From the NCBI RefSeq assembly GCF_000027125.1, contig NC_017626.1: a DNA stretch of 64,000 bases. One strand, written 5' to 3'. This stretch comes from Escherichia coli 042. GTDB lineage: Bacteria > Pseudomonadota > Gammaproteobacteria > Enterobacterales > Enterobacteriaceae. The notes beneath the pieces are model-generated. The model ran no database searches. It was not told where the DNA came from and saw only the letters and a list, made by a program, of their open reading frames with translations. The position numbers and the translations under genes were made by a program. Positions 9,595-11,983 of this stretch are shown piece by piece (the first letter of the stretch is position 1; every line of letters begins with the position of its first letter).

Positions 9595-10783
9595 TAATTT
9601 GCTTATTCAGATAGTCGTACCACCAGTTCATAGCTTCTTTTTTTCTGTCCATATACTGGCTTCTGTTATAAACCCCGGCAACACCGCCTAATGTGTGCCC
9701 AAGCAACTGTTCAACCACATTATGTTCAAAACCATGATCACTTAGTTTTGTGGCAAACACTCTTCGCATATCATGCGCCGTCCATTTCTCCGAGTGTTTC
9801 ATCCTTTTCCATGTCTTACCGATAGTTACGCTTGCCGTACACTGACGCATATCAAACCCAATCACATTTTCTTTGTTACCTGTTATTTTTTTTAACGTAA
9901 CTAACCAGTTAAACATGCCATCAGGAATCGGTCTGATTATTTCCCTGCCATTTTTGCTATGATCAGCGGGAACGCGCCATAATTTCTTATCAAAATCCCA
10001 CTCTACCCAGGACGACAGTAATACTTCTGACAGTCGACAACCAAAAACTACCAGGAAACGTAAAATAATTCGGTTTTCATATGATAATTCGTGATTGTCA
10101 TAATCAGTATTAATACTTCGCCATAAATCTCTGATTTCATCATCTGTTAAAACCCTGCTTCTTCGCGCAGACTTTTTTCCCACATCACAGACCTCAAGAT
10201 CATCAATTTCATGACTAATCGCGTATTTTCTTACCCTACAAAATTTAAGCGCCTGTTTTGATATACGCAACAAAGCTCCGGCCTGTACAGGTGCTACTTT
10301 TTTTATTTTGTCAAAACACTTAATCCACATAGATATAGAGCAATCACTAAGTGGTACATGACCAATCACCGGATAAATATGTTTACCAAAGCACTGCCTG
10401 ATATGTTCTGCTCCCCTACGCTTATCCATTGCATAATTATCAAGCCAGTATTCAAGTGCCTCACGAACGGTAACAGGTTGCAAGGTGGCTTCCCGTTCAA
10501 TTTTTATCTGAATCCGTGGATCTCTGCCCTCCGCAAGCCAAGTTCGACACTGATCGCGCATCTCTCTCGCTGATTTGAGACTCAGATCAGGATATTTTCC
10601 AAGTGTCAGCCAGATGGGCGCGGTTTCCCTTCCCGCCAGTCTGTAAAAGAAAACAAAACTAACACATCCGTATTTACTGACCCGTACCGAAAGCCCGTTA
10701 CCATCAGCGATGGTTTCCTGCCTCTCACTCCTGCGTCCAAGCAGGGAACGAAGTTTTTTATCGCTCAGTTTGTTTAGCGCCAT
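9560..10783 (-). CDS. P4-type tyrosine integrase of the satellite island
   Basis: C-terminal 407 aa of the 807-aa ORF beginning at internal Met (MALNKLSDKK; ATG at 10783-10781); N-terminal arm-binding domain and C-terminal HDMRR...LGH...Y catalytic motifs. Confidence 0.85.
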   Translation of the reverse strand: MALNKLSDKKLRSLLGRRSERQETIADGNGLSVRVSKYGCVSFVFFYRLAGRETAPIWLTLGKYPDLSLKSAREMRDQCRTWLAEGRDPRIQIKIEREATLQPVTVREALEYWLDNYAMDKRRGAEHIRQCFGKHIYPVIGHVPLSDCSISMWIKCFDKIKKVAPVQAGALLRISKQALKFCRVRKYAISHEIDDLEVCDVGKKSARRSRVLTDDEIRDLWRSINTDYDNHELSYENRIILRFLVVFGCRLSEVLLSSWVEWDFDKKLWRVPADHSKNGREIIRPIPDGMFNWLVTLKKITGNKENVIGFDMRQCTASVTIGKTWKRMKHSEKWTAHDMRRVFATKLSDHGFEHNVVEQLLGHTLGGVAGVYNRSQYMDRKKEAMNWWYDYLNKQISGDSNDSNSYA

Positions 10784-10948
10784 GTGATTTATAACCCGTT
10801 TTTGCAATACACAGTGCAATACACAAATGATGAAAACAGCCAGAACCTTCCAGAAAAAACAAAAACGACGAACAAGAAAAAAATCTTTTTCTTTCATTTG
10901 GTTACTAAAAAAATCAGGACAGGTCGCACTGTTGTTACGGCGTGATGT

Positions 10949-11983
10949 TACTTTCTTGGTAAAAAAATTCACCCGCGCAGAGACCTGCTCCTTCGCTTTT
11001 TTCGCCAGACGACGCAGATCATCCCAGCGTTTACAGATGCCCAGGCCAGGATTCGCTTTCTGCCAGACCGTTTCATCAAACGGATCATCTCCCTCATCGA
11101 GCGTGTAAATGATCGCAAAGTAAGAGTCGTCTTTTACAGCGCCCTCCACGTCGCTGTTATAGCCTCGCAATACCTTGATGGCGTAATCACGCTGCTCGTA
11201 ACAAATCCCTTCCTTGTTAAAGCCAGCCGTGGTGATACCAAATAACAAGGACTGCAGACGGGCACCGGTTGCCGTTTCCAGAACGTCCCACACGTCGCGG
11301 GTTTTATGTGCATGCAGCTCATCAATAATGGCGCAGTGGATGTTCAGACCGTCCAGGTTGTTTGCATCCGAGGAAAGCGGTTCAAATTTTGATGCGCTCT
11401 GCTCCTGGTAAATCGCCAGCTTGTTGAAATCAAACAACCGCCCGAGTGTCGACCGGGCTTTTCTGACCATATTTTTGGCGTCTTCAAACACGATTCTGGC
11501 CTGGTCACGCGTGGTTGCGGCTGAATACACCTCAGCTCCGCCTTCACTATCTGCCCCCGTCATATACAGGCCGATACCCGATGACAGGGTTGATTTTGCG
11601 TTTTTACGGGCGACTTCGTTGTACGCCGTCCGGAACCGGCGCACCATCACCGGACGTCCGCTGCCATCGCTGCGCATGACAACTTCCCCGGTTTCTTCAT
11701 TGACCAGCGGAATGACAAAACCAAAAATATTAATGAGGATAAATACATGCCAGTCCATCAACTCAATGGGCTGGCCTGCCAGTGCCCCTTTTACATGAGG
11801 CACAAATTTGTAGAAATTCAGGATGTGCTGCGCACGGGGTTCACTGAAATAAATCCCCCGCTTTTCGCCGTACTTCAGATCATCAAGAAAACGCTGGCAG
11901 GCCAGGCGGACAAATTCGCCAGCAACAATTTCTCCTGCAACAACACGTTCGGCGTAGCGGATCCCGTCAGCCACTTTTGCCAT
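10949..11983 (-). pseudogene. prophage terminase large subunit, 3'-truncated (ATPase domain only)
   Basis: First ~345 codons of 807-aa ORF: Walker A-like RRFRTAYNEVARKNAKS, Walker B AIIDELH, ANPGLG; similarity ends near 10950 where AT-rich island DNA begins; nuclease domain missing. Confidence 0.75.

Follow-up and report, generated by a model that had tools for sequence, protein, structure and literature searches.

The point at which a prophage terminase gene passes into a satellite integrase gene in the window, i.e., the whole 64,000-nucleotide stretch of Escherichia coli 042 DNA that was analyzed, is very probably the attL of an HE-PICI of the group A:Terminase_1:246, which by its gene content is a capsid-forming PICI (cf-PICI) and which occupies codons 341-343 of terL in a lambdoid prophage residing at tRNA-Ser. 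HE-PICIs were defined and their terL site group was mapped by Tommasini, Mageeney & Williams (2023, NAR Genom Bioinform 5:lqad036; PMC10111431). The arrangement, the site and the fused reading frame were already published in that work of 2023, and the window copy is one more instance and not a new principle. The terL gene appears to be split into a 5' fragment next to int and a 3' fragment that is expected about 15.4 kb away; the window spans the element from attL to the 5' part of the portal gene, and both attR and the terL 3' half are placed beyond it from relatives. The features are compiled in Table 1.

Table 1. Positions of the satellite, of its attachment site and of its helper prophage in the window
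Feature	Position	Strand	Evidence
Start of the satellite's own capsid module	1-2255	-	PHROG phrog_10 and phrog_80
Portal, 5' part (cut by window edge)	1-469	-	
Prohead protease	471-1031	-	
Major capsid protein	1086-2255	-	
Replication zone	3365-6729	-	PHROG phrog_1139 DNA primase, phrog_44 SSB; Pfam on collinear orthologues
PerC	3365-3661	-	
SSB	3677-4102	-	
DUF927 primase	4313-6433	-	
DUF4222	6430-6729	-	
Bro zone	7165-8961	-	PHROG phrog_2593 and phrog_6196
321-aa gene, repressor-like C-terminus	7165-8130	-	PHROG
Bro-N anti-repressor-like gene	8383-8961	-	PHROG; Pfam Bro-N on orthologues
Second AlpA-family gene, 92 aa	9019-9297	-	PHROG phrog_2790, E = 1.5e-34; Pfam Phage_AlpA on orthologues
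alpA, excisionase and transcriptional regulator; 5' end overlaps int end	9361-9582	-	PHROG phrog_2790; Pfam Phage_AlpA on 73-aa orthologues
Satellite tyrosine integrase, 407 aa, P4/PICI type (Arm-DNA-bind_3 and Phage_integrase)	9560-10783	-	Pfam; PHROG phrog_1
Island-side arm of attL, 172 nt, 35% G+C	10784-10955	-	Almost invariant across loci
Doubled motif TGTATTGCacTGTGTATTGC, signature of HE-PICI attP arms	10804-10823	-	Pattern search
Homopolymer run, T7 on gene strand, keeping terL fragment and int in one frame	10877-10883	-	Alignment
Helper prophage terL 5' fragment, codons 1-343	10955-11983	-	Pfam; collinear with intact 585-aa TerL to K343
attL core (crossover segment), TTACCAA on gene strand, TTGGTAA on + strand, terL codons 341-343	10956-10962	-	attB/attL/attR three-way alignment
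Helper late operon upstream of split terL, co-oriented with island	11983-17856	-	PHROG; ORF list
Helper TerS	11983-12465	-	
Helper HNH	12614-12964	-	
Helper lysis genes	13007-14740	-	
Helper Q antiterminator	17035-17856	-	
Helper prophage integrase	31308-32333	+	PHROG integrase
tRNA-Ser beside helper integrase	32386-32475	-	ARAGORN

Anatomy of the open reading frame across the junction

According to the ORF listing, the junction is covered by a single open reading frame of 807 aa with an ATG start (9560-11983, - strand). It begins with the N-terminal portion of the TerL of a lambdoid prophage (residues 1-343), continues through an AT-rich linker of 57 codons (residues 344-400) and ends in a complete integrase (residues 401-807) that starts at M401 (ATG at 10783-10781, - strand). 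Pfam places TerL_ATPase at residues 112-268, TerL_nuclease at residues 283-345 (model positions 2-64 of 286 only), Arm-DNA-bind_3 at residues 406-492 and Phage_integrase at residues 611-777. The ORF can be aligned collinearly with an intact 585-aa TerL (locus L002, 5780-7537) as far as K343 (...ARVNFFTK), after which the two are unrelated; this breakpoint lies within the Pfam nuclease-domain model, about 60 residues in, and not on a domain boundary. A preliminary description of the same DNA, which had recommended such an alignment, delimited the chimera as residues 1-345, about 55 codons, and residues 401-807 with an ATG at 10783, which is right to within two residues. The same description calls the TerL nuclease domain absent; the helper fragment retains the first ~60 residues of the nuclease model in addition to the ATPase domain. 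In relatives, the orthologous stretch is labeled by PGAP as 'terminase large subunit, missing C-terminus'.

Among 5426 complete E. coli genomes, 35 carry the junction (97.5-98.4% identity) and 905 the uninterrupted target terL; the assembly collection contains at least 45 blocks that encode the identical 807-aa protein.

Attachment sites and island ends

The 7-bp core TTACCAA is common to attL in the window, to attR in five relatives (L001, L003, L007, L009 and L012) and to the intact attB of L002; the same core was found in 11 relatives. In the five relatives with attR, a 15.4-kb island is bounded at its far end by the core, the C-terminal half of TerL begins immediately behind this core, and joining both terL halves rebuilds the intact gene. 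One record, KE136678.1, which comprises both L012 and L014, encodes the identical 807-aa protein and also shows attR. The terL 3' half and the direct repeat of the junction sequence, for which a search beyond the window had been suggested, both occur in relatives, the latter as the 7-bp core.

The linker codons, which had been regarded as junk, are indeed AT-rich (35% G+C) but constitute the island's att arm and contain a doubled TGTATTGC motif. This motif starts about 134 bp downstream of the attL core center in the window, while a second copy in the same orientation is found in relatives, within their attR arm (L007 15220-15239; its end is about 78 bp ahead of the core center at 15318), so that both arms carry it. 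The published signature of HE-PICIs is the doubled motif tgTGTATTGCantgTGTATTGCa in both attP arms, co-oriented, approximately 81 bp upstream and 132 +/- 2 bp downstream of the center (PMC10111431). Apart from the length of the T-run, moreover, every base of the window attL agrees with the published attL alignment rows. A consensus scan of the - strand detected neither a promoter-like nor a terminator-like site in the attL arm, and nothing resembling a terminator separates the terL fragment from int; the scan carries little weight in either direction.

In all 35 genomes carrying them, the att arms are split as attL and attR (median 2 places per genome), and among the attL matches listed, all lie under the labels 'integrase' and 'terminase large subunit'. 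Furthermore, the same island arm adjoins diverged helper terL alleles with the cores TTACCAA and TCACGAA and with two variants of the 3' half. Within A:Terminase_1:246, the published att identities comprise tcacgaa and tcacaaa besides 'ttaccaa' (PMC10111431). Supplementary File 1 of that survey lists, as A_Terminase_1_246 with the att identity 'ttaccaa', the islands CP016546.1/4486766-4502213 (L001 2212-17659) and KE136678.1/169912-154667 (L012), both bearing the remark 'reannotate terminase/int fusion'; at least 14 table rows are flagged 'terminase/int fusion', and about 61 rows belong to the terL site among those listed (PMC10111431).

Excision of the island is predicted to yield the restored terL (attB) junction GAATTTTTTTACCAAACACATGAATG, also given as GTGAATTTTTTTACCAAACACATGAATG, and the attP junction GAAATATTCTTACCAAGAAAGTAAC, also given as GAAATATTCTTACCAAGAAAGTAACATC, whereas the predicted attR reads ...GAAATATTC-TTACCAA-ACACATGAATGTGTGGGT..., followed by terL codons 344-585. 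The attP junction was found neither in IMG/VR (exact-pattern scans with 33-nt and 22-nt patterns) nor in JGI metagenome contigs (pattern scan), and a megablast search of 5426 E. coli genomes with the reconstructed 378-nt attP gave no contiguous match but separate attL and attR matches only, negatives that say little because these collections consist largely of integrated prophage calls and include few viromes from E. coli. As a positive control for the pattern scan, the attL pattern was recovered from 10 IMG/VR contigs.

Gene content of the island and of its helper

The key island genes in the window are encoded on the - strand in the order int, two alpA-family genes, Bro-N, primase/SSB and capsid/protease. 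The genes for Int, both AlpA-family proteins, Bro-N, the 321-aa protein, primase, SSB, capsid and protease are co-oriented with the helper genes for Q, lysis, TerS and TerL. Collinear relatives continue past the portal with connector, HNH, TerS, TerL, attR and the terL 3' half, and relatives with an identical protease carry an island TerS (Terminase_4) and a 553-aa TerL; the island TerL of relatives shares 32% identity with the helper TerL. The island of L001 (2212-17659) measures 15.4 kb and has no annotated tail or lysis gene. No match to defense genes was obtained among the island accessory ORFs with PADLOC, and no C4/isrK-type immunity RNA was found in the island with Rfam at gathering thresholds.

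On the helper side, late and early prophage genes run on to the tRNA-Ser at 32386, and the helper integrase together with this tRNA gene (31308-32475) is the prophage's own chromosomal attachment end. The ORFs for integrase, exonuclease, a repressor-like protein, replication initiator, Q, lysis proteins, HNH and TerS, as checked in the window, are full-length. Helpers of A_Terminase_1_246 islands are named 'Eco...57.S' and are integrated at tRNA-Ser (PMC10111431). Prophages of this kind will be scored as defective by prophage-completeness tools though they are merely interrupted.

Origin of the junction and of the shared frame

Of the two origins that had been proposed for the junction, integration of the island into terL is borne out by the core common to attL, attR and attB and by the position of the 3' half at the far island end in relatives. 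The other, namely a deletion or illegitimate recombination that fused a prophage remnant to a satellite integrated elsewhere with loss of the terL 3' half, could draw on the window showing one junction only and no 3' half, as well as on the truncation reported for some helpers of such islands (PMC10111431); it is nonetheless very improbable, given that the break lies exactly on the 7-bp core and that the two halves in the five relatives add up to an intact gene. In addition, diverged alleles of the helper gene carry this same junction, a pattern that random deletion would not produce time after time. The chance that two contigs were falsely joined across AT-rich sequence during assembly, which the preliminary description had named as a possible refutation, is negligible: nothing beyond the low-complexity, T-rich linker speaks for it, and it is refuted because the junction recurs in independent assemblies, including the 35 independently closed E. 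coli genomes, the 10 IMG/VR contigs and the at least 45 blocks encoding the identical protein, and it was mapped independently in the published survey (PMC10111431). Of greater weight, though still unlikely, is a stranded relic, i.e., an element with the anatomy of an HE-PICI whose helper or island has decayed, so that the composite is no longer inducible and terL is permanently broken. Many HE-PICI helpers do look truncated (PMC10111431), and the attP form appeared in none of the collections searched (IMG/VR, JGI metagenome contigs and complete E. coli genomes); against a relic, all island genes from int to protease in the window are open and collinear with relatives, the helper genes checked there are full-length ORFs, and the integrase differs from that of relatives by a single residue.

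As regards the shared frame, the 807-aa 'chimera' is the frame of the terL fragment running through the att arm into int and not a designed fusion protein. A selected and functional TerL(1-343)-linker-Int protein, for instance one coupling integrase synthesis to translation of the helper late mRNA, would accord with the frame staying open over 57 AT-rich codons, which occurs in only 1.8% of mononucleotide shuffles of the attL arm while the other two frames contain 3-4 stops, with the lack of a terminator-like site between the TerL and Int parts, and with the wide distribution of the identical fusion protein. However, relatives with T6 instead of T7 end the frame of the terL fragment at a stop codon lying 6 nt ahead of the int ATG (alignment; translation of the CP015229 version), and an Arsenophonus member of A:Terminase_1:246 has a stop about 20 codons past the junction. 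Furthermore, the linker translates into T-rich hydrophobic nonsense, int possesses its own ATG with the usual MAL... N-terminus, and PMC10111431 treats the 'terminase/int fusion' as an annotation error to be redone. Because the fusion hangs on the length of the T-run, T7 versus T6, the single ORF is a frame accident. A functional fusion was judged unlikely on the T6/T7 polymorphism and the Arsenophonus stop, and indeed its chance is very slight.

In E. coli annotations, ORFs that join terminase and integrase are artefacts of the att site and ought to be divided. Such fused ORFs appear to have entered one PHROG terminase profile.

Proposed course of integration and excision

With the junction read as the attL of an HE-PICI, a tyrosine integrase of the P4/PICI type would have recombined the island attP with the TTACCAA core in the helper terL. 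Upon SOS induction, the composite of prophage plus island would excise and replicate, as in 11capE, and late transcription under Q antitermination may then cross terS and the terL fragment to reach int and alpA. Int and AlpA would subsequently excise the island, restoring terL (attB) and releasing the island as a circle (attP). For the terL site, induction, read-through transcription and excision are extrapolated from 11capE. The island would presumably replicate by its own primase and package with its own TerS, TerL, HNH, portal and capsid, while tails would be supplied by the helper.

Since the satellite lies inside a packaging gene of its helper, the helper would be unable to package until the satellite excises, and helper packaging would be held back up to this point. 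The earlier claim that the prophage cannot package DNA on its own is valid while the island is integrated, but excision should rebuild terL exactly, and the island, judging from relatives, has intact TerS, TerL and HNH genes of its own. The island is placed where helper late transcription would enter the integrase and excisionase genes. The case shows that satellites can parasitize their helper phage in cis, an idea already in the literature.

Two further propositions are together very improbable: that in the T7 variant ribosomes on the helper terL fragment run on into int, so that the resulting TerL(1-343)-Int fusion ties the integrase supply to helper late translation or, weaker, that the terL position of a cf-PICI is an interference mechanism. 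If T7 coupling were true, the timing of satellite excision would follow helper late translation, and the T6/T7 run would switch the coupling on and off by phase variation. If interference by position were true, no helper DNA would be packaged before the satellite leaves, whereas cf-PICIs are otherwise described as cost-free to the helper. The HE-PICI and cf-PICI papers (PMC10111431; 10.1101/2022.09.08.507074) give no explicit description of an island that unites cf-PICI content with an HE-PICI position in terL.

Comparison with known systems

The closest counterparts are the published members of A:Terminase_1:246 (Eco4041.15.A_Terminase_1_246 and Eco829.15.A_Terminase_1_246), with which the window element has in common the target gene and codon, the core ttaccaa, the att arms with doubled TGTATTGC, the gene order, the type of helper (a lambdoid prophage at tRNA-Ser) and the terminase/int fusion ORF, while its integrase is identical at 406 of 407 positions (99.75%) to that of Eco4041.15.A_Terminase_1_246. 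Nothing essential differs, the window copy having its own mix in the Bro zone (the 321-aa gene) and the T7 arm. In keeping with HE-PICIs of this site group, the island lies within, and disrupts, a late gene (terL) of the surrounding prophage, the att identity block falls on the same terL codon as in the group, the pairwise identity places the integrase in the HE-PICI clade and in the subclade belonging to the site, the doubled motif occupies both arms (the downstream copy in the window, the upstream copy in relatives), int, alpA and primase are co-oriented with the interrupted gene, and the zones Integration, Bro, Replication and Late can be distinguished.

The experimentally studied HE-PICI 11capE (Eco567.11capE), which resides in a lambda-E-like capsid gene of prophage 50icd, shares the integrase clade, the co-oriented place inside a helper late gene, the four-zone layout and the proposed cis-regulatory logic. 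It differs in its target, a capsid gene (site E:Phage_cap_E:80), in its 10-bp identity block and in its size of 11 kb; moreover, 11capE lacks terS and is presumed to use helper cos packaging, whereas the type of the window element has a full capsid and terminase module. For 11capE, the only HE-PICI for which precise excision has been demonstrated by experiment, qPCR and deep sequencing revealed excision of the composite, followed by replication and then by precise satellite excision, although its virions were not recovered by the authors (PMC10111431).

By gene content, the cf-PICI prototype EcCIEDL933 (Alqurainy et al.) is likewise similar, sharing int, alpA, primase, major capsid, protease, portal, head-tail connectors, HNH, TerS and TerL; like other cf-PICIs it lacks tail and lysis genes and measures about 15 kb. 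Correspondingly, the window element has int and alpA together with its own capsid and packaging genes (those past the portal inferred from relatives) and, judging from L001, no tail or lysis genes and a size in the ~10-15 kb class. Islands with the cf-PICI gene set need helper tails only (10.1101/2022.09.08.507074). The site is different: here attB lies inside a prophage gene, whereas the attB sites described for cf-PICIs are chromosomal and 'never occupied by prophages', and EcCIEDL933 costs its helper nothing (10.1101/2022.09.08.507074). Prophage-embedded sites are not mentioned in the cf-PICI papers, including 10.1101/2022.09.08.507074. Owing to its position inside the helper terL, the window element would have to delay helper packaging, unlike EcCIEDL933, and the terL-site group, embedded and with a full capsid and terminase module, would be a good system for the cost of cf-PICIs to the helper.

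A more distant likeness exists to satellite phage P4, whose integrase is related and which likewise has Bro-network genes and a regulator of the AlpA family. The integration site of P4 is a chromosomal tRNA-Leu gene, and P4 relies on the capsid proteins of P2, being devoid of its own capsid or terminase genes. The HE-PICI clade branches within the clade of PICI and P4 integrases (PMC10111431). Finally, regulated gene integrity by excisable elements, a category in PMC10111431 exemplified by prophage-like elements whose excision repairs the host gene they had interrupted, has in common with the present case that precise excision alone restores the gene and that attP is without a replacement copy of the target 3' end; here, however, the interrupted gene belongs to the helper phage, and the switch serves the satellite and not the cell.

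Architecture of the terminase/integrase reading frame

The preliminary description of the 807-aa reading frame as a terminase large-subunit fragment joined to a complete integrase proved correct in coordinates and residue numbers to within two residues, as judged by ORF listing, Pfam and alignment to intact TerL. The intact TerL of E. coli Z0117EC0148 (L002 5780-7537, 585 aa) possesses a full nuclease domain at residues 283-563; the fused protein carries the same residues up to K343 (...ARVNFFTK) except for two substitutions and is unrelated beyond it, so that the proposed alignment to an intact homologue locates the breakpoint after K343. 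The nuclease domain, which had been regarded as absent, lacks most of its model but retains the initial portion listed in the table. The linker, residues 344-400, corresponds to 172 nt (35% G+C) at window 10784-10955, and M401, encoded by the ATG at 10783, begins the integrase with its typical N-terminal sequence MALNKLSDKKLR.

In addition, integrase residues 275-406 (window 9560-10783) match positions 690-811/812 of phrog_9, 'terminase large subunit' (E = 2.6e-25). Fusion ORFs of terminase and integrase, like the present one, appear to have entered this PHROG profile when it was built, in which case integrases can be mislabelled as terminases.

Features of the interrupted terL, the helper prophage and its flank
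Feature	Window position or residues	Strand	Basis or context
807-aa ORF	9560..11983	-	ORF listing
TerL_ATPase	residues 112-268 of 807-aa ORF		Pfam
TerL_nuclease, first 64/286 model positions only	residues 283-345 of 807-aa ORF		Pfam
Arm-DNA-bind_3	residues 406-492 of 807-aa ORF		Pfam
Phage_integrase	residues 611-777 of 807-aa ORF		Pfam
att core	10956-10962	TTGGTAA on +, TTACCAA on gene strand	terL codons 341-343
terS	11983-12465	-	helper late operon
Lysis genes, HNH	between Q and terS	-	helper late operon
Q	17035-17856	-	helper late operon
tRNA-Arg(tct), tRNA-Met(cat)	downstream of Q		helper prophage
Low-GC 111-aa ORF	15392-15727	+	helper prophage extra gene
STnc100	15753-15942	-	helper prophage small RNA
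sok antitoxin	20552-20727	-	helper prophage small RNA
DicF	27909-27960	+	helper prophage small RNA
tRNA-Asn	33467-33542
2041-aa ORF	42655-48780		ORF size; region 33467-64000
3163-aa ORF	48868-58359		ORF size; region 33467-64000

Site-specific integration into terL

Two origins had been considered for the junction, namely integration of the island into terL or a deletion fusing two elements, with an assembly artefact as a possible objection. The artefact is ruled out, since, among 5426 complete E. coli genomes, 35 contain the whole stretch from int through the terL fragment to terS (window 9300-12500), with identities of 97.5-98.4%; uninterrupted terL, queried as the two halves joined in silico, occurs in 905 genomes. 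The window begins within the island (the portal gene is cut at position 1), and the evidence on the far island end (attR) and the terL 3' half comes from relatives. In E. coli O177:H21 (L001) and isolate NRZ96606 (L003), the island's own TerL is followed by about 500 bp of non-coding DNA, a pseudogene annotated as 'terminase TerL endonuclease subunit, missing N-terminus' and then the portal, protease and capsid genes of the prophage itself. Hence, gene order puts the island inside the prophage terL, with one half of the gene on each side. KE136678.1 encodes an identical 807-aa protein (L014) and, directly after the island's own TerL, a 241-aa terL 3' fragment with TerL_nuclease (L012).

When intact terL (attB), the window junction (attL) and the junction at the other island end (attR) were aligned, all three proved to share a 7-bp core, with some imperfect similarity extending beyond it on both sides; the same attL recurs in 11 further loci and the same attR in five. 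Thus, both the terL 3' half and the repeated junction sequence that were to be sought beyond the window exist in relatives. Moreover, the helper terL halves are diverged alleles, the 3' half reading GGGTAACAGCAGAG or GGGTCACTGCCGAA and the core TTACCAA or TCACGAA. Because the same island arm is joined to these different helpers at the same codon, a fusion by deletion is rejected in favor of site-specific integration, which the shared core, the attR of relatives and the recurrence on diverged helpers support. The two variants of the 3' half indicate that the island entered, or was exchanged among, diverged helper lineages. The core co-varies with the helper allele (attR of L001, L003, L007, L009 and L012; attL of L034 and L035), and its differences are synonymous in the F-T-K codons.

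The att arm and its reading frame

The linker formerly taken for junk constitutes the 172-nt island-side att arm, which is almost invariant between loci; it bears TGTATTGCacTGTGTATTGC (window 10804-10823), the start of which is about 134 bp away from the core centre. A doubled motif, tgTGTATTGCantgTGTATTGCa, with copies 81 +/- 2 bp upstream and 132 +/- 2 bp downstream of the attP centre, is defined as unique to attP sites of helper-embedded phage-inducible chromosomal islands (HE-PICIs; PMC10111431). On the gene strand, a consensus scan of the interval separating int from the terL fragment yielded no promoter-like or terminator-like site.

An open frame through the arm is unusual, being kept by only 1.8% of arm shuffles, and the two remaining frames contain 3-4 stops. 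The homopolymer at window 10877-10883 is T7 on the gene strand and T6 in CP015229 and AP042598, where the terL-fragment frame stops (...CKNGL*) 6 nt ahead of the int ATG; run length therefore determines if the terL fragment and int are read as a single ORF or as separate ones. In L034 and L035 the polymorphic run lies at about 1570-1580. In the Arsenophonus member of the terL site group A:Terminase_1:246 a stop occurs about 20 codons past the junction, and the accessible part of Supplementary File 1 carries a 'terminase/int fusion' note on at least 14 rows (PMC10111431). Given the T6 relatives, the Arsenophonus stop and these notes, the fusion is polymorphic rather than conserved, and the 807-aa ORF is an accident of frame.

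Gene content and proposed mechanism

According to the annotation downstream of int, the island measures 15.4 kb in L001 and L003 and encodes, in this order, two AlpA-family regulators, Bro-N, icd-like and DUF4222 proteins, a DUF927 primase, SSB, PerC, major capsid protein, prohead protease, portal, head-tail connector, HNH, a P27-family TerS and an intact 553-aa TerL. The replication module is island-borne, and relatives carry their own capsid and terminase module. In the window, the complete integrase is followed by two AlpA-family excisionase/regulator genes; every island ORF is intact and collinear with relatives, and the helper genes checked are full-length. The best complete-genome match to window 1-11000 reaches 91% coverage at 98.8% identity. 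Searches of IMG/VR recovered attL in 10 contigs; excised attP was detected neither there nor in JGI metagenome contigs nor in complete E. coli genomes. Since island and helper TerL share 32% identity and differ at the att position (SQWVEMLTKRFNIW vs ARVNFFTKHMNVW), integration of the island into its own terL is unlikely.

A 168-aa ORF (2542-3048, +) lies antisense within the island, in a 35% G+C patch of the PerC-capsid interval. Retained across all related islands, it aligns over its whole length with phrog_5789 (function unknown), has no PADLOC match and is a candidate for accessory cargo.

The integration point, the 7-bp core, and the co-orientation of the island with the helper late operon, all on the minus strand, suggest the following as the most likely course. 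Q-dependent late transcripts would extend beyond the terL fragment to cover int and alpA, and island excision would rebuild terL. The island would package itself with its own TerS, TerL, HNH and capsids while the helper supplies only tails, in analogy to capsid-forming PICIs (cf-PICIs), which were shown to need only helper tails (10.1101/2022.09.08.507074). Helper packaging would not be expected before departure of the island.

As to the remaining prophage, relatives encode an equally long ORF at the place of the 111-aa ORF, which is annotated there as anti-adapter IraM or matches Pfam PmrD. By ORF size, the region after tRNA-Asn appears to be the yersiniabactin High Pathogenicity Island, the 2041-aa and 3163-aa ORFs having the lengths of HMWP2 and HMWP1.

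Relation to known systems

A survey described 491 HE-PICIs, which occupy 14 sites distributed over nine lambdoid late genes; every one of them runs in the orientation of the gene it interrupts, and their integrases belong to a single clade (PMC10111431). Within the accessible part of its Supplementary File 1, CP016546.1/4486766-4502213, which corresponds exactly to L001 2212-17659, is listed as Eco4041.15.A_Terminase_1_246 with helper Eco4041.57.S, att identity 'ttaccaa' and the remark 'reannotate terminase/int fusion'; KE136678.1/169912-154667 (L012/L014) as well as AGTD01000001.1 and CP015229.1, both among our matches, also appear there, and at least about 61 rows are assigned to this site, as counted from 122 occurrences of its name at two per row. 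The window integrase is identical to that of Eco4041 at 406/407 residues, which makes the window element a further instance of this site group. Hence, the element is not new, its fused ORF is already recorded by the survey's authors as an annotation problem, and it is an HE-PICI of the A:Terminase_1:246 group with cf-PICI gene content.

The same island, with identical protease and att arms, resides at a non-terL site in L004 (GCA_020282315.1 JACZFA010000004.1, 1-250 and 15290-15340), close to the 3' terminus of a gene for a 291-aa protein with no Pfam match; a tape-measure gene lies about 3.4 kb downstream of the site. There, attL reads ...TTTTACACCAA/GAAAG and attR ...ATATTCTTACCAA/AAAAGAAAAC. 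This is either off-target integration, described for 28 cases (PMC10111431), or a site not yet listed.

For the sister element 11capE, experiments showed that mitomycin C causes the composite to excise and replicate, whereupon the satellite leaves precisely (PMC10111431). That A:Terminase_1:246 joins the cf-PICI gene set with an embedded terL position is a small point beyond the cited papers. While the cf-PICI prototype EcCIEDL933 is reported to be cost-free to its helper, we infer that the embedded position in terL must delay the helper.
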